Below are positions 1 through 32,795 of a stretch of DNA of 34,124 nucleotides, in pieces. The stretch is from contig LT635952.1 of NCBI GenBank assembly GCA_900128565.1, positions 1-34,124 on the forward strand, given 5' to 3'. The DNA is from Stramenopiles sp. TOSAG23-6. Taxonomy: Eukaryota. The position numbers and the translations under genes were made by a program. A model generated the notes under the pieces. It searched no databases. It had not been told where the DNA came from and was given only the letters and a program-made list of their open reading frames with translations. Within the stretch, counting starts at the first letter, position 1; every line of letters starts with the position of its first letter.

Positions 1-53
1 ATTTCGTACGAAAAAAAATCGATTTTTTTGTTTAAAAAAAAAATAAAACATAC
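1..53 (-). other. Truncated copy of the repeat-family intron (5' half); mirror 34072..34124
   Basis: T|GTATGTTTTATTTT...AAAAAAATCGATTTTTTTTCGTACGAAAT; the window ends inside the CGTACG palindromic core. Confidence 0.85.
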
Positions 54-821
54 ATTCGTTTGTTCTTTTGTATTCCTATGTCTACGATTTTGTTTTTTTT
101 CATTTTTTTCATCTTCCCATCGATTGAATAATTTGATACAACGAACATCATTTTCAGATAAATTATTTCCATTATATTTATCAACCATGGAATCATTTTG
201 ATGATGATGATGGCGATGATGATTTTTACGATTTTTATCAGTTTTATCCACTTTAGTAGATTTTCTTGGACTCGTAATAAAATGTTTAAACGAATTCCAC
301 AATCCAATTACTTGTTTCTCCTCCTTTATGAGGAATTGTTTTGCTTTGGACTCCAAAATATTTGCGTCTTTTGTTACTTCGTCTTCAATTGCTTGAACCT
401 CGTCTACAATTGCATGCTCTATTTTTTGAAGGGCAGACATAGAACCAATAGAATTGGGTGTTAATTGGTGCTGGTTATGTTGATGATGGTGTTTCGAATG
501 ATGATGATGTTGATGATGGTGTTCCGGTTGATCAACTGAATGTTTTCGATGATGATGATGATGATGAGATTTCTTTTCTTTTTCTTCTTGAAGGCTTTTG
601 GGCTTTTTCTTCTTTTTCTTGCTTCTTCTTGTGAATGACATTGTCTTTGTGGCTCGTTTCCAAATTGAAGGATTTCCCGTGGTCGCAAAACCTCGTATTG
701 TTCCGCCACCAGCGCTTACTTTTGTGTCAACCTGTGGGTATTTTTTCCCGTTGTAACTACGCGTCTCACTGACTGTTGTTGTTGTAGTATATTCTGTTGT
801 CTTTCCCTCTTCTTCTTGCAT
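54..821 (-). CDS. First exon (256 codons) of an unknown low-complexity, His/Lys-rich protein; continues beyond window
   Basis: Manual translation from ATG at 821: MQEEEGKTTEYTTTTTVSE...KSHHHHHHRKH...RHHHHQND...KEQTN, with no stop before a family-intron donor GTATGTTTT at 53. Absent from the ORF track, probably because it has no stop inside the window. Confidence 0.7.
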
Positions 822-957: not shown

Positions 958-1329
958 GATAAGAAGATACGATAAAATGAGTACTGTATATTGTAACGTC
1001 TATCCAAAAACCTCCGGAAAGAACTGAAGAAAAGCGAAAGGATAACGGAAGAAACGACGGAGATATTTGTAATCTAATAACGACAAACCTGTTCCAAATT
1101 TAAATTTTCTCTTTTCTCCAACCTTTGAAACGCATTTCAATTTGTTCAAAATTTGAATTTCGAAAATCGAATAAGTGAAAATTTAATCAAGAGAATAAAA
1201 AATTTGAATGGAATCAAAAAATTCTCTTTCTATTAGGGAAAAATAATCATCAGGAATAGCAGCGTATTTTTACAATAAATTGGTGAATTATACTCTAGAA
1301 GCTTTACAAGTGTGCAAGTCTGAGTCTCA

Positions 1330-2695
1330 ATGAGCTCACTAGATTTCTTTGTCGTCATGATGTGTCTACGATTGACGATTCCATCTTCATCAAAACATAG
1401 CGTATTCAAAGACCTACATGCCCAATCTCTTGCATGCGCTAGTTATGAAACAGATAACATTGTATGGAATCAAATGATAATGGAAGCTGGTCCAACAGCT
1501 CTTGAATTGCCAATTAAGATAGCACACCCTTCAAACTCTAGTAACTCACAAAAATGGGACAAAGCCGGTATTTTGATAGAGCCACGCAGCCATCCTTGTA
1601 TAGGAATTGTTGTTCGCTCGGTGATGTTTTATCTTGGACCTAATTGGGGTTTACAAATATTCCACGGGCCAGATAATCTACAATTTATAAGAGATAATTT
1701 GTCCCTAAATTGTTCTGTGACTACTAATAGTTGCACTTATAACAAAGCTATACTCAAAAGGATTAAATTTACAAATTTATATAATGTATATAAAAGTATG
1801 CAATCAAATACTTGGCCTTTATGGCTTCAGAATAAATGGGCCTCTTGGGTATCGCTACAGGAAAAAGAGAATGAAAGCAGCGGGCATTGGAATCTTCATC
1901 GTAGGGTGTATGTTTTCATCATGAATTTCAAATTTTTGTTTCGTACGAAATTTTGTACCTAAGAAAAATTTAAATTTGATATATTTTTTCACAATACATA
2001 TATAGTCAAATTCTTCTTGATATGAAGTTTTGGGAGAAAGTTAGTGCTGATACAGTTTTAATATTCCAAACTGATTCCTTCCTTTGCCGTTTTGGAATTG
2101 AAAAATATAAAGATTTTGACTATGTAGTACGTTCTTCACTTTATTTCATATTTTTTTTGTTGTATACCCAGCTAACGAAATTAGAATTTAAAATATTTTT
2201 TTTTGTATATACCTAACGGATTTATAATTTAAAATATATTTTTTCAGATTTCATGGCTCTCCCTGGAAATTATGTTTCAACAACCCTAGCAGCTATCTCT
2301 GTGTTGGAGGAAACGGGGGTCTTTCTCTTCGAAAGACTTCAGCAATGAAGCATTTAATTACAAATGGAGTAAGAACACTAGAAATGGAAGACTGTATGTT
2401 TTATTTTTTTTCAAATTCTAATTTTTTTTTCGTACGAAATTTTGTACACCAATTTGCTGATTGGTTGCATAGGTCAAAAAAACAAAAATTTACTTTGTTA
2501 CCATTTGAAACTGCACAAAATGTTTTTGTTGAAGAAATTGTACCAAAAAATACTAATAAATTACCAATTCTGGGTATACATAAAGTCTTCAAATATATAA
2601 ATAGTAATAGTATGAGTATGTTACTCCAGTCATGTATGTCAGAACTTAGAAAACCTCAAAACTTTAAAAAGGATGGAGAATTATCAGAATTATAA
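1330..2695 (+). CDS. DUF5672-like (putative glycosyltransferase-fold) protein, 4 exons: 1330-1907, 2000-2126, 2255-2393, 2448-2695
   Basis: Joined exons give LIEPR..., W.LQIFHG.DN, YSQILL..KFW, VLIFQTDS, DFDYVGSPW, GGNGGLSLRK, MEDY, GIHK, motifs I recognise from DUF5672 proteins. Start codon uncertain. Confidence 0.7.
1908..1999 (+). other. Repeat-family non-canonical intron (GT...AT, 92 nt); mirror 32126..32217
   Basis: agg gt|GTATGTTTTC...TTTCGTACGAAATTTTGTACCTAAG...TTTTTCACAATACAT|a tat agt gives R-V-Y-S-Q. An in-frame TAG acceptor 6 nt downstream would delete YS. Confidence 0.75.
2127..2254 (+). other. Repeat-family non-canonical intron (GT...AT, 128 nt); mirror 31871..31998
   Basis: tat gta|GTACGTT...ATACCTAACG...TTTTCAGATTTCAT|ggc tct ccc tgg restores DYVGSPW. 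The nearby CAG (7 nt upstream) is out of frame. Confidence 0.8.
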
Positions 2696-2900
2696 ATGAA
2701 AATATTTAATATTTTTAATTAAGTTTACCATATGTTTGTGAATTTCAAATTTATTTAGCCGTGGTCAAATTTTTTTTTTGACTTTCGTCCCAGTCAGGAC
2801 TCCGGAGGTCAAAAAAAATATCAAACACGAACACGAGAGATAAAAAAGCAATGCAATTATTTCTTTTCAATAAAATGCAGTAGCTAATTTCACGACAATA

Positions 2901-4734
2901 ATGCCAGTCTTGAATAATGCTACCTCACCAATTGTTGGAAAGCAAAAGCGTTCTATTCTTTTTGTATGTGACTTTTTTTACCCTAGATTAGGTGGGGTAG
3001 AAATGCACGTCTTTAGTCTTGCTCAGTGCCTTTTAAAACGAGGACATAAAGTCGTGATTTTGACACATAATTACGAAAATCGTGTAGGTGTGCGTTACAT
3101 GGTCAACGGTCTCAAAGTGTATTATGCTCCCCTTGCAGTAATGGCAGATCAATGTACTTTCCCCACACTGTATGGATTTTTCCCTTTGTTTCGTCAGATT
3201 CTTATTCGGGAAAAAATAGACATTGTGCATGGTCACCAGGCAACATCTCAGTTAACTCATGAGTGCATACTTCATGCTCAAACTATGTCATACAAAGTTG
3301 TGTATACGGATCATTCGCTTTTTGGTTTTGCGGATCTCGCAAGCATTCACGCAAATAAAGTCCTTTCCTTTACTCTATGTAATATTGATCACGCAATATG
3401 TGTTTCACACACCTGTCGGGAAAATTTAGTATTACGGGCATCACTTGCGCCTGAAATAGTATCCGCAATTCCTAATGCTGTAGATTCATCAAAATTCACC
3501 CCTGATTTTGAAAAGCCACACTTTACGAAGTTTCCTACTGAATCAGATGTAATTAATGTTGTCGTAATTAGCAGAATGGCATTTAGGAAAGGTATTGATT
3601 TACTTGTGCAAATGATACCTCTTGTATGTCGTGATTGTCCTAATGTTCATTTTATTATTGGAGGCGATGGTCCGAAACGATTGCTTCTCGAGGAAATGAG
3701 AGAAAAAGAATGTTTGTTTTCATCATTCATTTCAAAAAAACAAATTCGTACCAAATTCCGTACCTAACGAAATTCGAATTTGAAATATTTTTCATCAAAA
3801 TATGTCTACAAGATAGAATAGAAATATTAGGCTCAGTGCCACACCGAAATGTTCGAGATGTTTTAGTGAGAGGTCATATATTTCTAAATTGTAGTCTGAC
3901 AGAATCTTTTTGTATCGCAATTCTTGAAGCTGCTTCTTGTACGTTTTCACCAATACGAATTTCAAATTCTGTTTTTTTTTCGTACTAAATTTTGTACCTA
4001 AGGGTTTTTTTGGGGTTTTATTGTAGTAATATACTTAACAAAAAAATCGAATCTATTGTATACATATTCTTTCACAATATATGTGGTCTTTATGTAGTTT
4101 CAACAAAAGTAGGAGGAGTACCAGAAGTCTTACCACCAGAAATGATCAGTTTTTCTTCACCAAACGCTGCCGATTTATCTCAAACATTGCAACGATCTTT
4201 CAAAAATCTTGCTTTCGTCGATGTACATTTTCAAAATTAAATTTTCAAAATTTCAAAATTTTTTTTTTGTAAGTAGAAACTTTCATACCTAACAAAATAT
4301 TTTTACTGAAAAAAATATTTTTTCACAACATATCGCGCTCATTTTCATGAATCTTTAACTACAATGTATAATTGGGAAAATGTTGCGGAACGTACTGAAA
4401 TTGTATATGATCGAGTGGTACCTTTTTTATTTCAAATTTCAATTTTTTTTTTTTTATACGAAATTTCGTACGTAACATTTTTTTTTTTTCGAAATATTTT
4501 TTCACAATACGTATAAATCTTCCGACTACATCGGTATTGAAAAGATTTCAAACATATAGTCAAATTGGAACTATTTTTGGTCCACTTTGTTGCATTATTA
4601 TTGTAATTGATTATCTATTTTTGAAAATTTTAGAGATTTTAATGCCAACAGAACTTGTTGAAATTGCACCAAATTTGACAATATCGATGTTAGGGTATAA
4701 ACAAAACATGGAAAGCAAAGAAAAGTATAAATAG
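2901..4734 (+). CDS. PIGA: Phosphatidylinositol N-acetylglucosaminyltransferase subunit A (GPI anchor biosynthesis), 5 exons: 2901-3711, 3804-3938, 4083-4222, 4334-4417, 4513-4734
   Basis: [115 protein letters not shown], and a C-terminal hydrophobic segment. Confidence 0.97.
3712..3803 (+). other. Repeat-family non-canonical intron (GT...AT, 92 nt); mirror 30284..30375
   Basis: gaa t|GTTTGTTTTC...TTCGTACCAAATTCCGTACCTAACG...TGAAATATTTTTCATCAAAATAT|gt cta caa gat gives EKECLQDRIE. No AG in the insert; a downstream in-frame AAG would delete 3 codons. Confidence 0.75.
3939..4082 (+). other. Repeat-family non-canonical intron (GT...AT, 144 nt); mirror 30005..30148
   Basis: tct t|GTACGTTTTC...TTTCGTACTAAATTTTGTACCTAAG...TTTCACAATATAT|gt ggt ctt restores [12 protein letters not shown]. 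Contains an in-frame TAA, and the internal AGs are out of frame. Confidence 0.85.
4223..4333 (+). other. Repeat-family non-canonical intron (GT...AT, 111 nt); mirror 29754..29864
   Basis: gtc gat|GTACATTTTC...CATACCTAAC...AAATATTTTTTCACAACATAT|cgc gct cat ttt cat. There is no AG between CCTAAC and the last codon of the conserved next exon, and the upstream AGs (4273, 4276) run into stops. Confidence 0.85.
4418..4512 (+). other. Repeat-family non-canonical intron (GT...GT, 95 nt); mirror 29575..29669
   Basis: cga gtg|GTACCTTTT...TACGAAATTTCGTACGTAAC...GAAATATTTTTTCACAATACGT|ata aat. No AG in the insert and the next two AGs are out of frame. Confidence 0.8.
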
Positions 4735-4863
4735 GACAATTTCTAATTTCAATTGTGAGCTTTTGGTAAGCTAAGGTGTTCTACATGCAATACTTAAATA
4801 TACTTAAATATAAATAATACAAATGAAGAATGTTTTTACTTGAAAATTATTTTTTTAAACATT

Positions 4864-7024
4864 TTACTGTTGGTATGCATTTATCACCATTTGTAGTAAT
4901 TCCGCTATTCTAGAGTCATTCCTTGCAATCTTTGCCTTTACTGTATTAATCTTTGTCATTTGATCTTTTATTGATTTTTCTTGCGCTTCCAATTCAGCAT
5001 ACAAACCTTTTATTTCATCTTCTTGTGATCGTTCAATGTCTTCGAATTCAGCCGTATATTTTTCATACTCACAACGCCATTGTATTAATTCTTTTTTCAT
5101 CATTTCCATATCTTCATGAACAAAATCCATGTACTGTTAAAAAATATATATTTTTTAAATTTGTTAGGTACAAAATTGAGTACGAAAAAAAAAACATAAA
5201 TTCAAAATTGAAAAACAAAACATACATGCACTTACCTAAAGGATTAGTACTTTTGCACAATTTCTGTATACCTATACGTAATTCTTTGACATTCACTGTG
5301 GTTTTTTTTCTACCTGATTTTTGTTTTTTTCCGACTCTTCCCATACGAATTCCTTTTTTCTGTGATGTTTTCTTTGATTCAGAATTTTCTGCACGTTTAG
5401 CTTCATCTGCCCTATTGGTTTCAGCGGCCTCAATTTCTCTTACAAGCTTAGATTTATTACCACCGTAATCATCAGCTTGGGAATCTAAACGAAAGTCATC
5501 ATTTTTAGACTCTTTTTGTTCATCATCAGAATCATCCTCTGAATCTTTGGCATCTTCAGTAATCACATTACCCACTTCAGCATCTGGATCAATATTTTTG
5601 AGATCAGATACTTTGCGCACATTCTCTCTTACTGTAGGAGGTCTCCTACGGGCAGTTGTAGGTCTTGCAAGACGTTGTGTCCTTGGTCTTTCAGATGGTG
5701 CTTCGAATTCTGTAGCACTACTCTTCTTTTTCGATTTCGAAGGTCGCCTTGGCTTGGAAGGCACATCTTGTTTTGTATCCATATCTACATCAGATATTCG
5801 CGAATTTTGTGATTCCTTTTCTTCCCGTGTTGATGAATGTGCCATTGCCGACAATGATGAATCTGTATTTTGAATACGAGAAGTACTCGAGTTAGTGTTT
5901 GACGAAATATCAGTACTACCAGTAGCAGCTACAACTAAATATTCTAGAAAACGTCGAGTTTTTTCAGTCTCTTTACCCGCGACTACTTTTGATAAATTAA
6001 TATCACAAATTACACCTAAATCTGCATTCACTGCATCTACGATTTTTTGTAAATATCCTATTTTCATTTCTTTCCCTTTAATAGCCTTTGAATTTTTCTC
6101 ATCGTCACCATAAAGTTCTGTTTGATAATTTCGCGCATTGCATATATTAGTAATCACATCAAATAAGAAACGAAATGGAGGTTTTCCGAGTAATTTATCA
6201 CTTAATCTTGGTTTTGATATGATTGCGGATATTCTTTCCCTACATTCTTCAAGATCCCCAGTCAAAACACTTAGGTCCAATTGTTCATCACTGTGTTTTG
6301 AACTTTGATGTTTTGGTGTAGAGTCTGCTTCAGAAAATTTTGACATTTCGGGAGATTGGGGGCGACGTGACTCAATTTGATGTTTCCCTTCATCTTTACT
6401 TTCTCGTTCACGGGAACCTGTTTCTACAGTATTCTTAAGATCAAAATCTGATTGCTCTTGTGATGGTGGAGCATCCTCTGGCTCTTGTATACGTTCACGA
6501 CNTTTTTTAGGCTTTTTTGGTTCAGATTCTAGTGTCGATTTACTTTCTTCTAGAGATATTTTTCCTTCTGTTGATCCTTTCTTACTAGAAGACTGTTTCA
6601 TTATGCGCCCGCCGCCACTCCCAGGAGTTTCCCCATTCAGTACCCGTTCGACTAATGGATCGTTATCTGAGGCAGATTCTTTGGCACAAATGGCGAGTTG
6701 CTGAAGGAATCCGTTTGTTCTCTCAGGTTCTTTGCCTGCAACAACTTTATTTGGATTCACATCTACTGGTGTGCCTTGGGCAAGACCTACTAAAGCTATT
6801 ATTTTGTTAAGATACGCAATTTTTGGACCTTTCCCTCGAATTGCTTTACCATTTAACTCTTCACCTTCATATAAACCTTCACCGAACCCCGTTTCCTTAT
6901 TTACATTCGAAATGATATCGTGTAGGAACCTAAATGGGGGTTTTCCAAGTAGTTTATCCGACATTTTTGGCTTGAAAATGAGCCCATCAAAGTGTTGCCT
7001 TGTTTCGTTGATGATATCTTCCAT
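4864..7024 (-). CDS. IFT54: Intraflagellar transport protein 54 / TRAF3-interacting protein 1 (MIP-T3), 2 exons: 7024-5226, 5128-4864
   Basis: KPKMSDKLLGKPPFRFLHDII, KVVAGKEPERTN.FLQ, RPTTARRRPP, IQKLCKSTNPLGKCMDFVHEDME.MKKEL, and a C-terminal coiled coil. Confidence 0.93.
5129..5225 (-). other. Repeat-family non-canonical intron (GT...AT, 97 nt); mirror 28862..28958
   Basis: tgc at|GTATGTTTT...TTTCGTACTCAATTTTGTACCTAAC...TTTTAACAGTACAT|g gat ttt restores PLGKCMDFV. The CAG 5 nt upstream of the end is out of frame. Confidence 0.85.
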
Positions 7025-7190
7025 GGTGTAATGTATCGGAAATGAAGTACGTAATTTGTGGGTAAAAGAAAAACACACAAGTTTTGTCGTATCTCAAAAC
7101 ACAGAAGGGATAAACGTTAAAAAAAACGATTTGTAAAAGTAACCGTCGACAAAAAAAAAAAAAAGAAAAATACACGAAATATCAAAGCAT

Positions 7191-9891
7191 TTATAAAAAT
7201 TTTACTTTTGCACTACCGGCGGCGTGCTTGTTTGCAGCTGTACTACTGCCATAACACCAAACATTAGATTGTTTAGCAATTCTTGTACCAAATTGAATAG
7301 CTCGTTTTGGTAGGCTAGCAGCTGTATCTAATCCTAAAATTCGAGCAACATCTCGAATAATCAATTTATCGCCCATGCCACGTGGCAATGAAAAATCTAC
7401 AATAATATCCAATGGAAGAGATCGAAGTAAACAAGTCACATTTTCATCTAAAAAAGGAAATCTTGCCTCTCTGCCATGAACAGAAAGTATGCGATCATCT
7501 CTTCCGAAATTTCTTTGCCACATGTATTGTGAAAAATATTTCAAAAAAAATCGTTAGGTACAAAATGTCGTATGAAAAAAAAATTGAAATTCAGGATGAA
7601 AACGTACATTCGACACTGATCAAGATTTAATTCTCTCGCCAATCCCATTCTGCCATTTTGTGTATATGCAAATTTGTGCCTTCCGTACCCACCTGCGTAT
7701 TCATCAGCACCAGTACCAGTAAGTAAAACACGCGCACAACTTTGATACGAAACGTCATTTTTTGTTTCAATATTTTGTTTTTTTGATGTGTCAATTTTCA
7801 TATTTTCAACATTTTTTGTTTCAAGTTTTTGTTTTTTTGATGTGTCAATTTTCATATTTTTATTATTTGGATTTGTTGTCTTTTTCTTATTTTTTCTTTT
7901 TTTCATCTTTTTTACAAGTTGTTTTGCATGACTTCGACAGAAAATGACTTCGTTTTTAAGAATACCACTGTTTATACCTTGATCTGCTGCATTTGAGTAT
8001 GCAGAAATATCAATATCCAAGTGTTCTAAATTTGTTTTTGCAGAAAATTCCAAAAACTTAGTATTGTGTTTTTCATTGTTATTATTTGTTTTCATTTCTG
8101 AAAGAAATACTTGACGAAGTAAAGTATGTGTACGATGACAACACGAAATGCAACATAAGAACTCACAATCAGCATGTGGATTTTTTTTGCAATTCTTCCC
8201 TTTGATAAAACGACCATGGCATTGAGCTGAATATTGTTTCGATGTCATTGTATTTTTTGTATGACTATTTTCTTTATCATTAGAATGATCATCACTCAGT
8301 CCTGTAGCATTAGATATTTGATTGCATTGTCTCATTTTGTTTCTCCTATTTATTCTGTTTTGTCTACTTTTCTCATCAACTAGAACTAACTCACGTATTT
8401 TTGTTTCTGTATGAATATTATTTACATCATTTATAGCATCCAAGTATTTTGGAAAAATATTTCAAAAAACAATTCGTTAGGTACAAAATTTCGTACGCAA
8501 AATAAATTCGATTTTTTTGTTAAAAAAAAAAATAAAACATACAAGTGACGGTTTAATTCAGATATATTTGTAATTATTCCTCCAGTTGCTAAACCTTTTG
8601 ATGCAAACCATAAAGCAGCACCAATATTAAAATCCATATTTGACGTTTTAGGATGAATAAGTTGTTCTATAGTTTTCGATTCTTTTCGGACATTTTCAAA
8701 AGTTTCATTGCATAAGAGAAGTCTAAGTGTTGTTGTTGTTCTTGTTGTATTGTTTTGGTTTTTATCTTTGATATGTTTTTGATGCCATAGTCCAAGTAAT
8801 TTGCTAAATCCGAATAGTGCACTTTTTCGATCAGGGGAAAGAAACATTGATTCCGAGTCAAAACAAACATTAATTAAATCTAAGGGTTCATTGCTTGGCA
8901 TTAGATCTATGCATAATGCAGCTATAATCATTGAATCTAAGCCACCGGAAAATAAAATCCCGATACGTGCAGGTGAAAAATGAGAATCTGATTCAGAAGA
9001 AGAACGACAATCTATAGGAAATTTATGTGAAGCTAAATTAGAAATTCGTTTTGCCACTGAAGATTTCAAGGCCTCTAATAGTAAATCTGCTGCAGTTGTA
9101 CGTGGGAGTAGTCTATTACGAATTGGCAGTTGGCTAAAAGTAAGGTTTTGTGTCCACTTGTGAAGTTTTACCTCAAGAGGAACAATTAAACAACCTTGAT
9201 CATTTAGTGAGAGATGAACACTAAAAATTCCAAGTGGTGGAATTTCTAACCATTTTCTTGTTGTCGTTGGTGAATTAACAATATCTGTTGGACTAACAGA
9301 TGCTATGAATAAGTCGTTCATCATACCAGCCCGAAAAACAGTAGAGTCAACATCATTATCAGTTGAGAGAACATCATTATCAGTTGAATTTAAGGATTTT
9401 GTTGATTGCTCTTGAAATATACCAGGAGATGCCATTAGACTACGCCGACCTCTAGGATCGCGACCAAAATATAAAGTTCCTGCAGGGTTTGAATTAGTAC
9501 CAACAATATGTTTTTCAGGCTTCCAATAAACAAACGACCAAGGGCCGTATATACTTCCCATTATTGCGACTATTTCCTCTGGTGTGTTGCTGGCACTGAG
9601 CTGCTCTAAGACGCATATGGTATCGTTTTTGTTCGGCCCAACATGTAAGCCACCAAATACTTCCCCATTCCAGAGGAGAGCATTGCCTCTATTATCTACT
9701 AGTGGTTGTTTAGTAGGACCAGTGGAACCCCTGAGATGTAAAACACAAGCAGCTAACTGTAAAGCTCCACCGAGTTCATTGCACCTGCCAGTAGAGTCTG
9801 GACCACGGGGTTCTATCACACGTAATGACTTTGTTATTGAAGCAGTGACTGTTTCAGGATTTTCTGAAATAGCTGCAGCAATGCCACACAT
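7191..9891 (-). CDS. ASNSD1: Asparagine synthetase domain-containing protein 1-like (Ntn glutamine amidotransferase plus synthetase domain), 3 exons: 9891-8543, 8441-7608, 7521-7191
   Basis: MCGI start, [111 protein letters not shown]. Confidence 0.93.
7522..7607 (-). other. Repeat-family non-canonical intron (GT...AT, 86 nt); mirror 26480..26565
   Basis: cga at|GTACGTTTTC...CATACGACATTTTGTACCTAACG...TGAAATATTTTTCACAATACAT|g tgg caa aga gives [12 protein letters not shown]. No AG in the insert. Confidence 0.85.
7756..7860 (-). repeat. 54-nt in-frame tandem duplication within ASNSD1 insert
   Basis: [18 protein letters not shown] / [17 protein letters not shown]. Confidence 0.9.
8442..8542 (-). 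other. Repeat-family non-canonical intron (GT...TT, 101 nt); mirror 25545..25645
   Basis: cac tt|GTATGTTTT...AAAAAAATCGAATTT...CGTACGAAATTTTGTACCTAACG...TGAAATATTTTTCCAAAATACTT|g gat gct joins the two long ORFs in frame. No AG in the insert. Confidence 0.8.
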
Positions 9892-10182
9892 AATAAAAAA
9901 TAATTCCCTTCTCTGGAACAAGTCGAACCAAATTGAGATTATCTTGTACAGTACTACGAGAATCTAGGAAGTAATTAAAAATTGATCTGACTCGACTGTT
10001 TTTTTTTTTTTCTCAAAAATCTAATTGAAGCAGGTTTGCGCTTTTTTTTTCGTGGTTTTCGTGTTATCATTTCAGCACAAAGACGAGCTTGAAAAAATGC
10101 TCTTCTTGCGTGTCGCTTTTTCCCTTGTGGTGCGGTTTGTCTTGCTGTTGTTTATCCAGGCCCAAACAAACATTTAAAGAAG

Positions 10183-10680
10183 ATGCCACATACCAAAGGT
10201 TACCGCGCAGCTACGCGTGACTTGTTCTGTAACAAGTTCCGCCAGGATGGTTTGATCAACATGACCACGTATAACACCGTATACAAGGTTGGAGATTACG
10301 TTGACATTAAGTGTAACGCTAAGGTCCAAAAAGGTATGCCACACAAGTTCTACCACGGCCGTACTGGTGTCATCTACAATGTCACCAAGGCTGCTGTTGG
10401 TGTTGTTGTCAACAAGAACGTTAATGGTCGCATCCTTAAGAAGCGCGTCAACCTCCGTGTTGAACACGTTCACCACTCTAAGTGCCGGGATGAACTTATC
10501 AGCCGTGTTAAGTCTAATGAACTCATCAAGAACACTCGCAAAGCTAAAGGAGTATCTCCAAAGGATGCTCCAGTATGCTTGAAACGTACACCTGTACTCC
10601 CACAAGCTGGTAAAATCATCAAGATGAAAGGAAAGAAGGCTAAAATCCTTTATCCTGTTCGTTACGAATTTGTCGTCTAA
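10183..10680 (+). CDS. RPL21: 60S ribosomal protein L21 (eL21)
   Basis: GYR..TRDLF, YKVGDYVDIK.N..VQKGMPHKFYHGRTG, VNK.V.GRI..KR.N.RVEHV.HSKCR. Confidence 0.98.
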   Translation: MPHTKGYRAATRDLFCNKFRQDGLINMTTYNTVYKVGDYVDIKCNAKVQKGMPHKFYHGRTGVIYNVTKAAVGVVVNKNVNGRILKKRVNLRVEHVHHSKCRDELISRVKSNELIKNTRKAKGVSPKDAPVCLKRTPVLPQAGKIIKMKGKKAKILYPVRYEFVV

Positions 10681-11182
10681 ATGTTGTTATCGTGAGATGA
10701 CTCTAGTCTTCTCTAAGTGTTTGCGACGTTTACCAACGTCGTTGGAGATTTTTTGTCTTTTTACTTAATGAATACATGCGTAGACACTAAATGAATACAC
10801 GTAAAGTGTTTAATTTGGTGATAATCTGCACTGCGAAATACCGAAAAGTCAAATAAAAATACACACCTGGAAAAAAGTTTTTTTTATTGCGTATATTTTT
10901 GTTAATTTTTCATCTTTTGATAGTCGTCGTGACTCTTTCACTTTTATGCATACTTTCCGAAATATCAACTTGTGACGTAAGATAATGTTTTATCGTGTGT
11001 TGTTGTAATGTTTCGTTTCCTTTAGTAGTATAGATTAATTGTATCAAATTTGGGATTTTGGGATTTTTTTTATGCAAAAAATATTTCAACTTCCTAAATT
11101 TTTTTGTGCTACATTTTCAATAACTACAACACATACATATAAATATAGTAGTTGTTTATTGTATAAAGCAATTAATATAATG

Positions 11183-11791
11183 TTAGTGTCGTGTTTGCGA
11201 ATAATGGATAAAATCGGAGCCTCTCAATAATGCAATATTGCTATTATTATACCGCTGAGTTTCACGTTTTATACCGTGGATGTCTTTCATCCCTATCCAC
11301 TGTAATAATAACCGAATTTCATCATCATCCATTGGCTTATCAACAATTTCAGCTGCTTCTTTAACTTCCTGACTATCAACATATCCAGTACCTTCTGGAT
11401 CAAATGAAAACTTAAATGCTGCAAACATATTCGTTTCCGTAGCGTTTTTTGTCGAAAAAGACTTGGCTGAATCCAGCAGCTCTTCAAAATCAACTTCTCT
11501 ATTTCCAATTTTTCTTAATTCTTCATTCAACTCCTGCTGCGATGGCACTAGCCCTGCACTTCTTACTATCATTGGGAAGAACTTCGCGTGGACTTTTGAT
11601 GTTTGTGCTGTATCAAATAAACAAAAAGCGTCTCTCAATTTCGTAACTTGGACTGACGTTAAGTCTCTCTGTTCACAAATGAAAGCTTTCCCTTTGTTTG
11701 GTCGATTTTTCCAATGTCGAGCTAATTGTTTAGCATATTTGGTCTGTAAGCGATTCCTTTTATTTTGCTTTAAAACTAATGCAGTACTCAT
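11183..11791 (-). CDS. Calmodulin/centrin-like EF-hand protein with degenerate loops
   Basis: LTSVQV.KLRDAF.LFD, VRSAGLVPSQQEL, VDFEELL, AF..FDPEGTGYV, MDDDEI follow the calmodulin-family pattern. Confidence 0.8.
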   Translation of the reverse strand: MSTALVLKQNKRNRLQTKYAKQLARHWKNRPNKGKAFICEQRDLTSVQVTKLRDAFCLFDTAQTSKVHAKFFPMIVRSAGLVPSQQELNEELRKIGNREVDFEELLDSAKSFSTKNATETNMFAAFKFSFDPEGTGYVDSQEVKEAAEIVDKPMDDDEIRLLLQWIGMKDIHGIKRETQRYNNSNIALLRGSDFIHYSQTRH

Positions 11792-12094
11792 ATTCTTTCA
11801 ATTTGGAAGAAGAAGTTCGAGATGTCTGACGTATCTAGTTTTGGATACTACTGAACACTCCTTTAGTAGTCTGTATAGAAGAAGTCGAAGTAACGAAGTT
11901 CTTTTTTTGTACCAAAAATTTGTACTTAACGGGGATACGTTAACTTCGAGGATCTTACACTGTATATGGATCTATATACAATATATGATATCATTTCACA
12001 ATTTTCCAACTCAAATGTCAAGCATTCACCATAAAATGCCAGGTATTCGAACAATATAGTATACAGCGGTTAGAAAAAAAGCACAACGAATAGT

Positions 12095-12748
12095 ATGTCG
12101 AGAGAAACGACTTGTTTTGTTCTTGACTGTTCGTGTCCCGCTCGAACAGAATACATTCAAATAGGTGCAAATTCTTCGGTTGATATTCAAATAGGTACAA
12201 ATTCTTCGGTTGACATTGAGGATGAATCCTTCACAATGAAACAGGGATACAGAAGAGTAGTTGAAGAAACGCATAAACCAGTAATTCGGCTATGTACTAA
12301 ACACATTATAGACTCTGTTACAAAAAGGATTGCCTGTCAAGATCCATTAGAAATATTTTCCTGTGATAGATCTGAGGAAAAAGAACCCGATGTAGATGCC
12401 GTAGTTGATTTAGAAATAGCAAATTACAGACCTTCCTGGCAACCAGATGAAAGTGCATCTTTATGTACCAATTGTAGCACGGAATTCACAGTGTCTAATA
12501 GACGTCATCATTGTAGAGTATGTGGTAGCATATTTTGTGGAGATTGTTCTCCTTTTGAATTAGGCCGTCAGAATGCACGTTGTTGCATTTTATGTCATAC
12601 TGGTATTAAAGAAGAAATTAGGCGCTTACATAAACATTCAGAAAGTGAAAAAACAAATGAAGTTATACCATGGTATTGTATAAACCAAAAATATCTGTTA
12701 GATAACCCAAATGCCTCTTTTTTTACACAACTCACTGATTGCTTATAG
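12095..12748 (+). CDS. FYVE zinc-finger protein
   Basis: WQPDE...[27 protein letters not shown]...RCC..C (WxxD and RRHHCR signature). Confidence 0.9.
12155..12217 (+). repeat. 30-nt in-frame tandem duplication in FYVE gene
   Basis: [10 protein letters not shown] / [10 protein letters not shown]. Confidence 0.9.
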
Positions 12749-13091
12749 AGTTCTGAACTTCGATTAGCTTTTTCACCCCATAAAAACTTTTATACCTGCA
12801 CTTTTGGAATGAATGGTAAATAAATGAAATTTGAATAATATATATCATTTTGTTTGCATATCGTCATAATATGATTATGAAGAACTCACCTGTCCTTCTC
12901 GAACGTTCACAAAAGCACAAAATTGTCACGAAATCGGGGCCCAGTACCGGGTAACATACTAGTCACATTTTTTTCTTTTCTGCTGACTACAAAGAGGTTG
13001 CTTCTGTTGTGTGCTTTCGTCCTTTCGCCCTTTGGTTCCCTTTTCTGCGTCCGCGTGTTTTCTTTTCTACCGTATCTACCAGCTTCAAAAA

Positions 13092-13329
13092 GTAAGTTAC
13101 ATTAATACCATTAAATTAAATGTATAGAATGTGTCCAGCTTATCTATGATGGCGTTTATTTTCCCGGTGTTTCTCAAATACAGTACCTGCGCGTACCATT
13201 GATACAAAAACCTGTTTTTTATCACTCGCAATTGGCAATATTTTCATGTGTACATTTATATTCTATCCCACACTAGAACCACCAGTGACTAACTAAAATA
13301 ACCTTGTTTTCATAATTATTATATAACAG
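13092..13329 (+). other. Probable canonical GT-AG intron in RPL28 5' UTR; mirror 20758..20995
   Basis: GTAAGT donor at 13092, GACTAAC branch site at 13287-13293, TAACAG acceptor ending 1 nt before the ATG, and a pyrimidine-rich leader upstream. Confidence 0.7.
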
Positions 13330-13330
13330 A

Positions 13331-13762
13331 ATGTCGAACTCTATCGTCTGGAACATTGTCAAAGCCAACTCTTGCTTTCTTAAGAAGCAGAAACATGCTC
13401 AATTCACAAGTGAACCAAGAAACCTTACTGCTATGAACTGCAAGAAGTATTCTGGACTCGCAAATGAAAAAACTGTTGGAATTGATTTCAACGCTGAACT
13501 CTTAGCTGAATCAAAAGCTATGCGTAAGGCACAGATTACCAAATCTGCTCCAAAGAATCTCGCTCGCCCTAACAAAGCAGTTTCAACTTACAAGTTGGCT
13601 CGTGGGTTTCGTGGAAACGTCAAAGCTCTCCGCAACCACACTCGCCGCTTCCGCCCAGACCTTGAAAAGGCTGCTCTTGCTCGTTGGACTAAGATGAACA
13701 CTTCTCTCCGCGTATGCAGAAACAGAAAACGTAGTCGCACTGGCTACAAAGCTACCAAGTAA
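13331..13762 (+). CDS. RPL28: 60S ribosomal protein L28 (eL28)
   Basis: IVWNIVK.NSCFL.K, F.SEP.NL...N..KYSGLAN.KTVGI, FRPDL.KAALAR. Confidence 0.96.
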   Translation: MSNSIVWNIVKANSCFLKKQKHAQFTSEPRNLTAMNCKKYSGLANEKTVGIDFNAELLAESKAMRKAQITKSAPKNLARPNKAVSTYKLARGFRGNVKALRNHTRRFRPDLEKAALARWTKMNTSLRVCRNRKRSRTGYKATK

Positions 13763-13956
13763 GTAATTCATTTTGACTTATATAATTTGGTTAGTGGGAA
13801 GATGATAACGGGGGAAATATTTGGAGATTTGTTTCACTTATTTTAATCACATTCTAATGTAAACTGTTGGTAACGGCATATGTTTTATGATTATTTTATT
13901 CTTTGTTTTTCTTTTTTTAGCCTAGAATATAGGCTTAGACTACTCTATTTTATTTT

Positions 13957-14457
13957 TTACCCTGGTGGCCATGATAGCTGACGTCCTCCAATTAAATGTA
14001 GATGCAAATGGTATACTGATTGACAACCCATAACTCCATCATTTACTACAATACGAAAACCATCTTTATCTAATCCCTCTTGTTTAGCAACTTCAGCTGC
14101 TGAAACCATAAGTCGTCCTAAAATATTCACATGATCATCAGTCGCTTTAGACAATTGAGTCAAACCTTGTCGAAGCTTTGGTATAAGAAGAATATGAGTC
14201 GGTGCAACTGGAGCTATATCCCGAAATGCAAGAACCTCCTCGGTTTCGTAGACTATTTCAGCAGGTATTTCTTTTGAAATTATTTTATCAAATATGGTAA
14301 AATCAGAATAAGGAACTGCTTTAGCTGCTTTTAGTTGTTCACCAGATGGACACTGAGAATTCATTTGTCTAATAGGAAACTTCTGGATAGCCGATGTGTT
14401 AAGTATTCTTTGAGGAAATACACCAGATATTACACAAAGATTTCGTAATATTCGCAT
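13957..14457 (-). CDS. HINT: Histidine triad nucleotide-binding protein (HINT family), with possible mitochondrial presequence
   Basis: TIFDKIISKEIPA.IVYE, LAFRDIAPVAPTHIL.IPK, GFRIVVNDG..GCQSVYHLHLHLIGGRQLSWPPG; the N-terminal extension is basic and lacks acidic residues. Confidence 0.96.
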   Translation of the reverse strand: MRILRNLCVISGVFPQRILNTSAIQKFPIRQMNSQCPSGEQLKAAKAVPYSDFTIFDKIISKEIPAEIVYETEEVLAFRDIAPVAPTHILLIPKLRQGLTQLSKATDDHVNILGRLMVSAAEVAKQEGLDKDGFRIVVNDGVMGCQSVYHLHLHLIGGRQLSWPPG

Positions 14458-14580
14458 GTAGTGTATCTGAAAAATAAAACTGGAATGAAGAGCAGGAAGA
14501 ATTCTATCTGGTTGTAGTCACTAAAGTGATGTTGTAACATTGTTGTTTTTCGATTTGATACCTCGACATATAGCTAGCCT

Positions 14581-14622
14581 ACTAGGGTTAGGGTTATAAT
14601 TGCTACCACTAGGGTTAGGGTT
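14581..14622. promoter_or_regulatory. Two telo-box-like ACTAGGGTTAGGGTT motifs between divergent HINT and MO25 genes
   Basis: 15-mer at 14581-14595 and 14608-14622; regulatory role inferred from position only. Confidence 0.45.
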
Positions 14623-14865
14623 TTGACTCGTGTGACTATCATTATTTACTTTTTAGTCTGGAAATCCAGCTGAAACCAAGCTTCTTTTTGTTTTTTCTAT
14701 AGACAAATATACTATATTCTCTTAAAAGGAGTGATATATATACTAAATAGATTAGTGTTTTCCTTGTATTCTCTCTCTCTGCTTTAGATTTCCCGGTCTT
14801 GAAGTACGTAATTTATCGATTGTTAAAGTTTTCTTTGTTCATTGTTTAATTGTTCCAGTGAAAAC

Positions 14866-15420
14866 ATGGCGTTTTTGAAAAATATGTTTGGTGGAGGTGT
14901 TGACCCAAAGCGACTGTGTAAAAAGATTGATGACGATCTTACAATCATCAATGCAAATGTTATGGATTCTACACCTGATTCTGAAGAGTTTCCCGCTGAA
15001 GTGAAAGAAGCTATGACTCATCTCGACAAACAATTGAAGAAGATGCGCGACGTTTTTTTCGGAACCCCTCCACAGAGCTCTGTGGACACGGCCGTTTGCG
15101 AAAAAATTGGCGATGAGGTCGTTCAACGCGATTTATTTAAACGTCTTATTATAGCCTTTCCAAACCTTGATTTTGAGACACGTAAATTAGTTGAAATGAA
15201 CTTTATTGCGCTTCACCACAATGACTATGGGCGATTTGGAAGTGTTTATTTGACGAATATGAAAAATCGGCCTCTATTAGACCGTCTTGTCCGAGGATAT
15301 GAAGGTAGTGGTGATATTGCATTAATATGTGGTCGCATGCTACGTGAATGTCTTTCTAATAAGGAATTGGCAAAAACACTCATCACACGTCAAACATTTG
15401 ACCTGTTTATGAAAGAATAT
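14866..15420 (+). CDS. CAB39: MO25/CAB39-family protein, N-terminal exon only (C-terminal half absent)
   Basis: MRDVFFG, LDFETRK, L.RGYE..DIALICGRMLRECL...LAK.LI...F..F..Y match MO25; ends at a family-intron donor. Confidence 0.85.
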
Positions 15421-15533
15421 GTATGTTTTATTATTTTTTTTTACCGAAAAAAAAAATCGATTTTTTTTTCGTACGAAATTTTGTACCTAACAAATTTTTT
15501 AAGAAAATTTTGAAATATTTTTCCAAAATACAT
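15421..15533 (+). other. Repeat-family element joining MO25 5' part to SF3B2 3' part (probably chimeric); mirror 18554..18666
   Basis: Full consensus GTATGTTTT...TTTCGTACGAAATTTTGTACCTAAC...TGAAATATTTTTCCAAAATACAT; flanking exons belong to different genes and different phases. Confidence 0.85.
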
Positions 15534-16361
15534 TGACTGAAAAGGCGGGGGAAAAAACGATCAGGCAAAAGGCGAGGGACCGAATGCAAGTTAAGATGAA
15601 CAAAATTAGTATCGATTATCAAGTTTTGTATAATGCGTTTTTTAAATTCCAAAAAAAACCAAAATTATTAGGGCATAATAATTGTTATTATGAGGGGAAA
15701 GAATTTGAGGTATTGGGTACAACACGAAAACCCGGAAATCTTAGCCCGGCTCTAAAATTAGCTCTTGGGATGCCAGCAAACGGAACGTCTCCACCTCCAT
15801 GGCTGATCAATATGCAACGATATGGTCCACCACCTGCGTATACTAAGCTGAAGATACCAGGTTTAAATTCACCGATTCCACCAGGGGCTTGTACATTATC
15901 TTCATTCAAATCTTTGATCACATTGTACCCCTAACCCTAATTTTTTTCAAAAAAAATTACAAAAATATGTTTTGTTTTTGTCTCTTTGGCTCACATATTT
16001 TTTAATTTTTTTTTTCACAATACATCTTTTGGATACCATACAGGAGGATGGGGGAAGCCTCCTGTAGATATCAATGGTAAAGCTTTATATGGTAATGTTT
16101 TTGGACGCTCTGGCTTCGATGATGATGAAAAAAATATTTCAAAATCTCGTTGGGGCGAAATTTTAGACGATGATGACGATGATGATGAGGAAGAGGATAA
16201 TGTCGAAGAAGCATTTGCGACCCAGATTCCTTCAACTGGTACCGACACAAGTGATGGAATTTCGTCTGTTATGACGGGTATTGAAACGCCAATGTCAGGA
16301 TTTGATGGAACTGTATTTTATGTTTATTACAAAAATTTGTACCAAAAATTTGTACCTAACG

Positions 16362-16399
<38 letters not shown>

Positions 16400-16934
16400 T
16401 CTAACAAAATTAATTCTAACAAAATTGTAGACTACGAAAAAATATTTCTTCACAATACATACATCTGTCAATTTGCAAAAGAAAATTATGTCTGAAACTC
16501 CAACACCTCAATTATATAAAGTTCTCGCTCAGAACCAAAGAAATGTGTATGTTTTACATTTCATTTTTTTTTTTTTTCATACGAAATTTTGTACCTAACA
16601 AAAAATTAAATTTTTTTTTTTGAATTTTTTTAAATTTTTAAAATTTTCTTTGATGTACACAGTACTATTTTTTTTTTTATATATAAAAGTATAAAAATAT
16701 AAAAGTATAACCCTACACCCTAACTTTACTCTAATCTTTACAAACAAAAACAAATTAAAAAATATTTTTTTACCATACATCAGCGATACAGATGCATTTG
16801 GTTCATCTTACAATTATGTTTTACCAGGTGCACAACAAAACACTGGTGTTGAACATGATGGTTTTGCAAGTTTAGCAAAAAAAGGTGTTCAAGGTCAAAA
16901 CAAACCAGTGAAAGAAATATCTTTAGGTGGAACA
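15534..16934 (+). CDS. SF3B2: Splicing factor 3B subunit 2 (SAP145/Cus1), partial: exons 15534-15890, 16026-16312, 16461-16546, 16781-16934
   Basis: IDYQVL..AFFKFQ.KP, YYEGKEFE, KPG.LS..LK.ALGM, PPPWLINMQRYGPPP.Y..LKIPGLNSPIPPGASFGYH.GGWGKPPVD..GK.LYG.VFG, WGE, G.ETP, PQLY.VL. N-terminus and extreme C-terminus are missing. Confidence 0.95.
15891..16025 (+). other. Repeat-family non-canonical intron (GT...AT, 135 nt); mirror 18062..18196
   Basis: gct t|GTACATT...TTGTACCCCTAAC...TTTTCACAATACAT|ct ttt gga restores PPGASFGYH. No AG in the insert, and using either of the next two AGs creates TGA. Confidence 0.88.
16313..16460 (+). other. Repeat-family intron (GT...AT, 148 nt; alternative in-frame AG at 16430); mirror 17627..17774
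   Basis: gga act|GTATTTT...TTTGTACCAAAAATTTGTACCTAACG-polyA...AAATATTTCTTCACAATACAT|aca tct gtc aat ttg. Confidence 0.7.
16547..16780 (+). other. Repeat-family intron (GT...AT, 234 nt; alternative in-frame CAG 3 nt downstream); mirror 17307..17540
   Basis: aat gt|GTATGTTTT...CATACGAAATTTTGTACCTAAC...AAATATTTTTTTACCATACAT|c agc gat aca gat gca ttt ggt. Confidence 0.7.
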
Positions 16935-17014
16935 GTGCGTTTTCAGTATCATTTTTTTAAATTTTTGACAATTGTATAAGAAAATTTCATACCTAACATT
17001 TTTTTTTTTTACCG

Positions 17015-17043
<29 letters not shown>
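16935..17043 (+). other. Truncated repeat-family intron cut by the palindrome axis
   Basis: aca|GTGCGTTTTC...AAATTTCATACCTAAC-T run-ACCG-polyA, then the sequence folds back. Confidence 0.75.
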
Positions 17044-17072
<29 letters not shown>

Positions 17073-17152
17073 CGGTAAAAAAAAAAAATGTTAGGTATGA
17101 AATTTTCTTATACAATTGTCAAAAATTTAAAAAAATGATACTGAAAACGCAC

Positions 17153-17687: not shown

Positions 17688-17725
<38 letters not shown>

Positions 17726-31391: not shown

Positions 31392-32795
31392 TTATAATTC
31401 TGATAATTCTCCATCCTTTTTAAAGTTTTGAGGTTTTCTAAGTTCTGACATACATGACTGGAGTAACATACTCATACTATTACTATTTATATATTTGAAG
31501 ACTTTATGTATACCCAGAATTGGTAATTTATTAGTATTTTTTGGTACAATTTCTTCAACAAAAACATTTTGTGCAGTTTCAAATGGTAACAAAGTAAATT
31601 TTTGTTTTTTTGACCTATGCAACCAATCAGCAAATTGGTAGGTATTTTGGAAAAATATTTCAAAAAAAAATCGTTAGGTACAAAATTTCGTACGAAAAAA
31701 AAATTAGAATTTGAAAAAAAATAAAACATACAGTCTTCCATTTCTAGTGTTCTTACTCCATTTGTAATTAAATGCTTCATTGCTGAAGTCTTTCGAAGAG
31801 AAAGACCCCCGTTTCCTCCAACACAGAGATAGCTGCTAGGGTTGTTGAAACATAATTTCCAGGGAGAGCCATGAAATCTGAAAAAATATATTTTAAATTA
31901 TAAATCCGTTAGGTATATACAAAAAAAAATATTTTAAATTCTAATTTCGTTAGCTGGGTATACAACAAAAAAAATATGAAATAAAGTGAAGAACGTACTA
32001 CATAGTCAAAATCTTTATATTTTTCAATTCCAAAACGGCAAAGGAAGGAATCAGTTTGGAATATTAAAACTGTATCAGCACTAACTTTCTCCCAAAACTT
32101 CATATCAAGAAGAATTTGACTATATATGTATTGTGAAAAAATATATCAAATTTAAATTTTTCTTAGGTACAAAATTTCGTACGAAACAAAAATTTGAAAT
32201 TCATGATGAAAACATACACCCTACGATGAAGATTCCAATGCCCGCTGCTTTCATTCTCTTTTTCCTGTAGCGATACCCAAGAGGCCCATTTATTCTGAAG
32301 CCATAAAGGCCAAGTATTTGATTGCATACTTTTATATACATTATATAAATTTGTAAATTTAATCCTTTTGAGTATAGCTTTGTTATAAGTGCAACTATTA
32401 GTAGTCACAGAACAATTTAGGGACAAATTATCTCTTATAAATTGTAGATTATCTGGCCCGTGGAATATTTGTAAACCCCAATTAGGTCCAAGATAAAACA
32501 TCACCGAGCGAACAACAATTCCTATACAAGGATGGCTGCGTGGCTCTATCAAAATACCGGCTTTGTCCCATTTTTGTGAGTTACTAGAGTTTGAAGGGTG
32601 TGCTATCTTAATTGGCAATTCAAGAGCTGTTGGACCAGCTTCCATTATCATTTGATTCCATACAATGTTATCTGTTTCATAACTAGCGCATGCAAGAGAT
32701 TGGGCATGTAGGTCTTTGAATACGCTATGTTTTGATGAAGATGGAATCGTCAATCGTAGACACATCATGACGACAAAGAAATCTAGTGAGCTCAT
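31392..32795 (-). CDS. DUF5672-like protein, mirror copy with intact third intron
   Basis: Reverse complement of 1330..2695 plus 38 nt at 31640..31677. Confidence 0.7.
31640..31731 (-). other. Repeat-family non-canonical intron (GT...CT, 92 nt), complete only in right arm; left-arm remnant 2394..2447
   Basis: gac t|GTATGTTTT...CGTACGAAATTTTGTACCTAACG...TTCCAAAATACCT|ac caa ttt gives E-D-Y-Q-F. No AG in the insert and the first downstream AG is out of frame. Confidence 0.8.

Follow-up and report, generated by a model that had tools for sequence, protein, structure and literature searches.

A repeated family of putative spliceosomal introns ending in NT instead of AG in a stramenopile contig

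How is a messenger RNA to be made from genes whose inserts begin like ordinary spliceosomal introns and do not end in AG? This question is raised by contig LT635952.1 of Stramenopiles sp. TOSAG23-6 (assembly GCA_900128565.1, positions 1 to 34,124), the whole of which, 34,124 nucleotides (nt) long, was analysed and is hereafter called the window. Thirteen inserts of 86–234 nt interrupt five of its genes, namely a DUF5672-like gene, PIGA, IFT54 (MIP-T3), an ASNSD1-like gene with an Asn_synthase domain, and SF3B2, and it is confirmed that all thirteen restore the reading frame when they are taken out by one and the same cut and that, so cut, none of them ends in AG. The explanation that we favour, and regard as probable, is that the inserts are spliceosomal introns of one high-copy family of the introner type, cut as GT...NT, in the nuclear genome of a marine stramenopile. 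As judged from the junctions described below, splicing would take place at GT...AT, and the major spliceosome would be the machinery that removes the inserts from RNA.

The rule that was tested is a simple one: the sequence is cut before GT and rejoined 2 nt past an ATAC-like end. This single rule reopens the frame in 13 of 13 inserts, which are distributed over phase 0 (four), phase 1 (five) and phase 2 (four), and since a wrong rule would keep the frame in one intron out of three, chance is excluded as the cause. At the 5′ end, positions +1 to +7 are G in 13, T in 13, A in 12, a pyrimidine (Y) in 13, G in 9, T in 13 and T in 13, a GTAYGT-like start that corresponds to the extended consensus of U1/U6 type. 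Every insert carries a branch-like box (CCTAAC, CCTAAG or CGTAAC), whose branch-like A lies 32–44 nt from the intron end in 11 of 13. A run of T stands ahead of the terminal box, which can be written as TTCACAATAC+NT. The 3′ consensus is TTCACAATACAT, with T at position −1 in all thirteen and A at position −2 in ten, so the terminal dinucleotides under the rule are AT in ten cases and CT, GT and TT in one case each. With this cut, the only one to leave the proteins colinear, the introns thus end in YAT in 10/13 cases and in AG in 0/13. A preliminary description of the window had claimed thirteen inserts in five genes, one cut rule valid across phases 0, 1 and 2, the same tally of terminal dinucleotides, and a donor-like GT with a CCTAAC-like box in each; all of this was recovered, and the six inserts that it had placed at 2127-2254, 31640-31731, 4223-4333, 4418-4512, 5129-5225 and 15891-16025 match exactly. 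The complete inserts, together with one truncated copy, are as follows.

1908..1999, + strand: DUF5672-like intron 1, 92 nt, phase 2, GTATGT...GTACCTAAG...CACAATACAT
2127..2254, + strand: DUF5672-like intron 2, 128 nt, phase 0, GTACGT...ATACCTAAC...TTCAGATTTCAT
31640..31731, − strand: DUF5672-like intron 3, complete right-arm copy, 92 nt, phase 1, ending in ...AAAATACCT
2394-2447: DUF5672-like intron 3, left-arm copy, without its last 38 nt
3712..3803, + strand: PIGA intron 1, 92 nt, phase 1, GTTTGT...GTACCTAAC...CATCAAAATAT
3939..4082, + strand: PIGA intron 2, 144 nt, phase 1, GTACGT...CACAATATAT
4223..4333, + strand: PIGA intron 3, 111 nt, phase 0, GTACAT...ATACCTAAC...CACAACATAT
4418..4512, + strand: PIGA intron 4, 95 nt, phase 0, GTACCT...GTACGTAAC...CACAATACGT
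5129..5225, − strand: IFT54/MIP-T3 intron, 97 nt, phase 2, GTATGT...GTACCTAAC...AACAGTACAT
7522..7607, − strand: ASNSD1-like (Asn_synthase-domain) gene, downstream intron, 86 nt, phase 2, GTACGT...CACAATACAT
8442..8542, − strand: ASNSD1-like gene, upstream intron, 101 nt, phase 2, GTATGT...CCAAAATACTT
15891..16025, + strand: SF3B2 intron, 135 nt, phase 1, GTACAT...CCCTAAC...CACAATACAT
16313..16460, + strand: SF3B2 intron, 148 nt, phase 0, GTATTT...CACAATACAT
16547..16780, + strand: SF3B2 intron, 234 nt, phase 2, GTATGT...TACCATACAT

The third DUF5672 intron appears twice because the window is palindromic. Read as their reverse complement, positions 1-2447 and 2448-17036 agree letter for letter with 31678-34124 and 17051-31639; the arms are 100% identical except for one 38-nt indel whose extra 38 nt sit in the right arm, and even the N at 6503 has a mirror N at 27586. 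The meeting point of the arms (~17037-17050) is an A/T hairpin inside an intron. The inverted duplication looks like a foldback chimera from amplification or assembly and not like biology, and only the left arm, ~17 kb, therefore counts as independent sequence. The insert at 31640-31731, which had been described beforehand as one more intron, is accordingly a real intron 3 of the DUF5672-like gene and not an independent locus, being the mirror of the one in the left arm. As a side observation, the left arm is without exactly 38 nt, from the C of CTAAC through the last base of this third intron; there is no microhomology at the break (2447/2448 against 31640-31677), and the deletion has one of its ends just at the 3′ junction that the rule predicts.

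Could the same proteins be obtained with ordinary AG acceptors? All GT or GC donors within 30 nt and all AG acceptors within 45 nt that keep the frame open were listed as alternatives (GY..AG). For three of the thirteen introns (2127-2254, 4223-4333 and 4418-4512) there is no in-frame GY..AG option, for seven the only options delete or add residues, and three are ambiguous. If the donor is kept, an in-frame, stop-free AG lies within 45 nt in seven introns, a count that replaces the five given in the preliminary description, and homologue alignments reject four of these seven. With the rule, nine junctions are free of gaps against homologues or profiles: the three of the DUF5672-like gene, the four of PIGA, that of IFT54 and that of SF3B2 intron 2. 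These comparisons support the view that AG 3′ ends would be impossible at 10 of the 13 junctions without destroying a conserved, colinear protein. The motifs that the preliminary description had reported as rebuilt by the cut (RRVYSQILL, DYVGSPW, EAASCGL, PLGKCMDFVHED and PPGASFGYH) were likewise borne out by the homologues, and a further motif on its list was recovered in the translation.

In the DUF5672-like gene, removal of 1908-1999 gives RRVYSQILL, of which VYSQ is common to the database proteins P0124, P0125, P0127, P0130 and P0135, and an AG 6 nt downstream would remove the YS of this motif. Removal of 2127-2254 gives DYV|GSPW where homologues have DYVGAPW, and the Pfam DUF5672 profile passes over the same junction, its positions 18-62 ending on exon 2 and its positions 63-101 beginning on exon 3. 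A CAG does occur 7 nt before the end of this intron; when the copies are aligned it falls on the CAC of their common box (repeat family D4), and to judge from this alignment it is a mutated family box and not an acceptor. At 31640-31731 the junction reads EDYQFA and is colinear with P0124 and P0127.

PIGA spliced by the rule shows no gap at any of its four junctions against eight of eight homologues. For intron 1 (3712-3803) an AG at +9 deletes three residues, for intron 2 (3939-4082) an AG at +15 would remove CGLYV, and the junction of intron 4, VYDRV|INLP, is colinear with VYKRIAKLP of P0004. A database model of this PIGA locus (2901-4735), P0003, was built with GT-AG sites only and illustrates the cost of doing so: a false intron drops 19 conserved residues, junction 1 loses three more, junction 2 gains four, and past junction 3 the intron is read as protein and homology is lost. 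By comparison with its homologues, this GT-AG-bound model is garbled.

The remaining junctions are of unequal weight. That of IFT54 gives STNPLGKCMD[YF]V, ungapped in P0001 and P0002, where a CAG 5 nt from the intron end shifts the frame and the nearest in-frame alternative adds three residues. Around 15891-16025 the upstream exon corresponds to residues 542-659 of human SF3B2 and the downstream exon to 663-761, so that G, A and a split Ser supply residues 660-662; AG alternatives delete SFGYHTGGWGK. At 8442-8542 the sole in-frame GY..AG alternative costs 14 residues. The three ambiguous cases are 7522-7607, with an in-frame AG at +9; 16313-16460, situated where conservation is poor, with in-frame AGs at +21 and −30; and 16547-16780, where an in-frame CAG 3 nt downstream makes a difference of one residue.

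What are the inserts, and where do they come from? A repeat search grouped a 19-nt 3′ box into nine copies on the + strand, each ending at the predicted last base of an intron (family D4), and it also grouped a CGTACGAAATTTTGTACCTAAC core. Altogether 13 complete and 4 partial copies lie in seven genes of the window, and all of them are oriented in the sense of the host gene. In the metagenomic DNA run X3 the summed depth is 43-13,510 in 11 of 11 intron bins as against 3.7-11.8 in 19 intron-free bins, sums that may include other organisms and A/T runs. Of 7,837 contigs placed on positions 1-17000, 1,755 fit two places. A near-identical 5′ part of the intron stands behind a DNA-polymerase-like exon on an unrelated metagenome contig (L001), which was the only metagenome contig matched by a 21-nt intron core; no viral contig was matched. 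This contig is itself chimeric over its positions 1-1076, consisting of ~170 nt of exon and intron of this lineage, then unrelated AT-rich sequence and an adapter-like end. The inserts are thus copies of one high-copy, introner-like repeated element.

Besides the complete inserts, the following members of the family were located.

15421..15533, + strand: chimeric family member, its 5′ half behind a Mo25-like exon and its 3′ half before the DUF382 exon of SF3B2
1..55, − strand: 5′ portion of another member of the family, GTATGTTTTATTTT..., where the window is cut off (family D11)
16937..17043, + strand: 5′ part of a further SF3B2 intron, GTATCA...ATACCTAAC, which holds the A/T hairpin at the centre of the palindrome

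The first of these joins the Mo25-like exon to the middle of SF3B2 out of frame (14866-15890), the Mo25 profile being covered at positions 10-169 of 332 and DUF382 from position 73; the Mo25 frame hits a stop across 15421-15533, and the match of an X3 DNA contig (record 16) ends at 15425. The joint is probably a misassembly or chimera formed at the repeated intron, an error into which assemblers are commonly led by repeats. Between two divergent genes, upstream of a FYVE gene, a family-like piece was also noticed at 11880-12010 (TTTGTACCAAAAATTTGTACTTAAC ... TTTCACAAT), possibly a defunct copy or an intron of a leader.

The borders of the introns may bear marks of insertion. Their ends are GTAT...ATAC, and ~5/13 have a subterminal TTTCAAA/TTTGAAA pair, which in no single intron reaches significance (P 0.06-0.2). 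In 6/13, among them the CT and TT exceptions, the two nt that close the upstream exon are repeated as the two that close the intron (permutation P 0.051), and the last exon base is T in 11/13 (P 4e-5). The T bias and the 2-nt border repeat may indicate that the introns arose by insertion, with a short duplication of the target. Secondary structure contributes little to the picture, as folding z-scores range from −4.2 to +0.4, mostly near −1 and below −2 in 2/13, and among the 13 introns there is neither a common stable fold or terminal helix nor any compensating change at the terminal GTAT/ATAC pairs.

How, then, would such an element leave the messenger RNA? In intron-poor eukaryotes the signals of the major spliceosome consist of a GTAYGT start, a TAC(C)TAAC box and a T run, and it is these U2-type signals, together with the sense-only orientation, that lead us to read the inserts as spliceosomal introns with a non-AG second-step site. 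The orientation of all copies also fits a strand-specific removal from RNA. In the mechanism that we propose, each copy brings along its own 5′ splice site of U2 type (GTAYGTTTT), together with a branch box like that of yeast, TACCTAAC, whose branch A is mostly 32–44 nt from the end, and a T run followed by the terminal box. The exons would be ligated after the T that lies 2 nt beyond ATAC, which gives an intron end of YAT (or CCT, CGT, CTT) instead of YAG, and what fixes the second-step site would be not AG but the 3′ box of the element, with its invariant last U, either through its position or by being recognised. The 2-nt offset may be the target-site duplication of the element, in which case the insertion would be erased exactly by splicing. 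A bolder form of this proposal, which we put forward only tentatively, is that the major spliceosome of this free-living stramenopile lineage no longer needs AG at all and that the element exploits this by a scarless self-erasure, ligation falling 2 nt beyond the end of the element, at the target-site duplication, whatever its letters (AT, CT or TT). If this were true, insertions into coding sequence would leave the mRNA free of scars, and it would explain why one family accounts for all the coding introns seen here.

Several observations weigh against splicing at GT...NT, and they are best considered together. Taking out a transposon with its target duplication restores the frame by construction; such restoration is automatic and proves insertion, not a splice site, so the weight rests on the open and conserved downstream exons in essential genes, on the divergence of the copies and on their orientation. 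The CACAATAC-NT box may be conserved by common descent of the repeat copies and not as a recognition signal. Of the altered spliceosome envisaged in the preliminary description, the non-AG ends at 10/13 junctions and the ordinary U2-type 5′ site and branch box have stood, and the part that made the 3′ motif the recognition signal may come down to this common descent. AG is depleted threefold inside the introns (13 seen against 38.6 expected, with GA at 36 against 38.6), which hints that AG is still read or that the depletion was inherited from the founder copy. The register is loose, a shift of one base to the left giving the same mRNA in 11/13, and the sample amounts to 17 kb of independent sequence in an assembly with foldback and chimeric joins. 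A candidate ordinary intron (13087-13329, GTAAGT...GACTAAC...AACAG) lies in the 5′ leader of L28e, where an RNA contig of run X10 (record 7) matches from 13330 on and has 10 unmatched letters upstream, and AG acceptors may thus still be in use alongside; the earlier statement that all coding introns are non-AG covers 17 kb of sequence and stands beside this leader candidate.

The RNA evidence belongs to the same side of the balance. Contigs, not raw reads, of one DNA run (X3) and three RNA runs (X6, X7, X10) were placed on positions 1-17000. Among the matches listed there is no spliced RNA joint, and the joints listed are cross-matches between intron copies. Three contigs of the RNA library X6, records 18, 19 and 24, continue into an intron, for 44, 26 and 99 nt, and are either RNA before splicing or DNA that was carried over. 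No weight was given to two RNA contigs that stop close to the end of an exon, X6 record 18 at 4223 and X7 record 26 at 1904. In the protein collection, two IFT54 pieces found no transcript fragment of the same species; one search gave only relatives at 43% and 33%, the other nothing. On the DNA side, contigs of the seawater run X3 cross from exon into intron, by 29 nt in record 12 and by 7 nt in record 13, so the inserts are present in the DNA of a natural population.

Four other explanations were weighed against GT...NT splicing by the major spliceosome. An unlikely one retains the same introns and the same mRNA and moves the cut one base to the left, so that the intron reads TG...CA (N-GTATG...ATACA) and its ends are still non-AG. 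The element TGTAT...ATACA would then have perfect 5-nt inverted ends; and as the last exon base is T in 11/13 and the last intron base T in 13/13, the mRNA is identical in eleven cases. The two registers differ only at 2127-2254 and 4418-4512, where the junction codon would still specify Val (GTA to GTT and GTG to GTT). The reservation about a boundary shifted by one base, already expressed in the preliminary description, was therefore well placed. This cut, on the other hand, takes the invariant GT away from the start of the intron and makes a coincidence of the 13/13 match of GTAYGT to the U2-type consensus. A register two bases to the left (NN-GTATG...ATAC) was also tried and is disfavoured, as the conserved Val of VYSQ, DYVG and YDRV would become Ile, Asp and Gly.

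It is quite unlikely that the inserts are removed by a changed minor (U12-type) spliceosome, a machinery known to tolerate many 3′ ends. The CCTAAC box resembles the minor branch consensus TCCTTAAC, and the 5′ end has GTAT and the T run in common with GTATCCTT; yet positions +5 and +6 are GT and not CC as in [AG]TATCCTT, and GTATGT with TAC(C)TAAC is the classical U2-type pair. Moreover the (T)ACCTAAC box lies 32–44 nt from the end, as opposed to ~10-15 nt for the minor TTCCTTRAC.

Very unlikely, in our judgement, is the more prosaic idea that these are transposon insertions spliced at a nearby AG with small in-frame changes, the gene being broken where no AG is at hand. In its favour speak the seven introns in which, with the donor kept, an in-frame AG is met within 45 nt, as well as the depletion of AG inside the introns, the RNA-library contigs that keep intron sequence, and a frame restoration that is automatic for a transposon with its target duplication. 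It has to contend, however, with three introns that have no in-frame GY..AG, with four of the seven AG options deleting conserved residues, with downstream exons that are open and conserved in the frame predicted by the rule in essential genes (SF3B2, PIGA), with the sense orientation of 17/17 copies or pieces, and with a divergence of the copies that argues for long survival under selection.

Removal outside the spliceosome, whether by precise elimination from DNA in the manner of ciliate internal eliminated sequences (IES) or by structure-guided excision from RNA in the manner of euglenids, is highly improbable, for the weakly inverted ends GTAT/ATAC, the TTTCAAA/TTTGAAA pair of ~5/13 and the short direct border repeat that recommend it are set against the lack of a stable common fold or compensating terminal-pair change, a strong 5′ site and branch box that it leaves unexplained and, for excision from DNA, a sense-only orientation that is not expected, seawater DNA contigs that keep the inserts, and borders that are not TA.

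GT...NT splicing by the major spliceosome thus being the reading that we retain, the identity of the host and its genes deserves a few words. The large-subunit ribosomal protein eL21 (10183-10680) finds its nearest counterparts among fungal, animal and plant sequences; its distance from the Euglena and trypanosome proteins is large. PIGA exon 1 has its best match in P0003, with identity over the shared exons and a source label beginning with GSMAST32, followed by P0004 (80% identity) and then by brown algae and oomycetes. These matches point to a stramenopile host and not to Euglenozoa, against a diplonemid origin, which was considered in view of non-canonical introns reported from single cells of marine diplonemids; those of PIGA also exclude a larvacean, considered on account of the 3′-AT introns of that group. 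To judge from these protein matches the host is a marine stramenopile, probably of the MAST-3 group (MAST, marine stramenopile), and the stretch is matched by seawater DNA and RNA runs from 8 studies.

Pfam identifies PIGA, MIP-T3 (IFT54), DUF382 and PSP (SF3B2), Mo25, L28e, an EF-hand protein and DUF5672 (exons 2 and 3); three ASNSD1-like exons match successive, colinear parts of Asn_synthase, each below the cut-off. An Rfam search over the window matched only the central hairpin, as a weak microRNA-like hit below the gathering score, and no small nuclear RNA. Some further features of these genes may be recorded. The IFT54/MIP-T3 protein (5226-7027, − strand) is encoded by one long exon with two copies of an N-terminal, CH-like region of the LLGKPPFRFL type. 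The Lys-rich middle exon of the ASNSD1-like gene contains a 54-nt tandem duplication (7756-7863, 93% identical). Short interstitial repeats resembling telomeres (TTAGGG/CCCTAA) occur in the intergenic stretch 14580-14640 and in two SF3B2 introns (15925-15940 and 16700-16725).

Why should these introns matter? GT...NT introns would be a rare natural change of the near-universal AG rule of splicing. If they are real, they would let one examine cleanly how the spliceosome chooses the site of its second step and how the first base of an intron pairs with the last, and a third supergroup of eukaryotes would join the few lineages in which non-canonical splicing is known on a mass scale, once more in connection with introners. 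A practical consequence is that gene finders bound to GT-AG fail on this organism, as the PIGA model demonstrates. Among single-cell assemblies of MAST, two of MAST-3 have 2,694 and 3,289 genes as against 4,652-8,537 in MAST-4, and apparent pseudogenes are mentioned in the parts of that study used here (PMC5778133). It is speculation on our part that unrecognised introns contribute to the low gene counts of MAST-3. We found no literature report of these introns, and their motifs taken as words brought up nothing but primers and unrelated texts: the portion of PMC5778133 covered contains 'intron' twice and 'splice' and 'canonical' zero times, its supplements being a place that may hold gene-structure notes, and 'introns' has zero counts in the corresponding portions of PMC12614181 and PMC8163842.

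Comparison with known systems helps to place the inserts. The criteria by which ciliate IES are recognised describe another kind of object, as the borders here are not TA, the copies are sense-only and the inserts are kept in seawater DNA. The introns of euglenids and hemistasiid diplonemids share with ours a mass departure from GT-AG in a marine protist; in the passages of the work on them considered here they have neither conserved borders nor U1 complementarity and their ends are extensively paired (PMC12621601), whereas the borders in the window are conserved and there is no common terminal helix. U12-type introns of Physarum show the same GT-AT pair, accepted there on RNA and paralogue evidence; according to the excerpts consulted, however, their 5′ sites read [AG]TATC[CT]TT, the branch motif stands 9-12 nt before the intron end, and they form a small minority of the introns in that genome.

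The closest parallels are found among transposon-derived introns. In the larvacean Fritillaria, as set out in sections of a recent article, more introns end in AT than in any other pair (34% in F. borealis and 44% in F. pellucida), YAY forms the last triplet almost without exception, a U-rich tract is retained, the spliceosome is of U2 type, divergent U2AF paralogues bind the non-canonical 3′ ends, and an origin from introner transposons is discussed (PMC13326754). The YAT ends of 10/13 window introns are alike in this respect; unlike Fritillaria, where the 5′ end is mostly AG and highly diverse and YAY precedes the site (PMC13326754), the window has GT in 13/13 with a full GTAYGT consensus and YAY upstream in 1/13, and its host is a stramenopile and not an animal. 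The introners of Amoebophrya, which have spread in the manner of miniature inverted-repeat transposable elements and are mostly non-GT-AG, resemble ours in being repeated introns and perhaps also in their inverted and short direct border repeats (PMC7789003). In the portion of that article used here they have no dominant dinucleotide pair and carry hairpins of 8-20 nt, as opposed to a dominant GT...AT and no stable hairpin in the window, and their authors propose a non-standard splicing mechanism (PMC7789003), whereas the window introns keep canonical 5′ and branch signals. The introners of Micromonas, Aureococcus and further eukaryotes of aquatic habitats are likewise high-copy, transposon-like families that make introns in unrelated genes and bring their own splice signals (PMC12130899). 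The survey in question was curated for GT/GC/AT...AG/AC ends and kept families with unfamiliar ends only where RNA supported them, and its passages considered here contain no AT-ended introner family (PMC12130899). What sets the window introns apart from all of these is the combination of canonical 5′ and branch signals with a change at the 3′ end only, together with their host lineage, and most likely they add a new form to the non-canonical introns that derive from introners.

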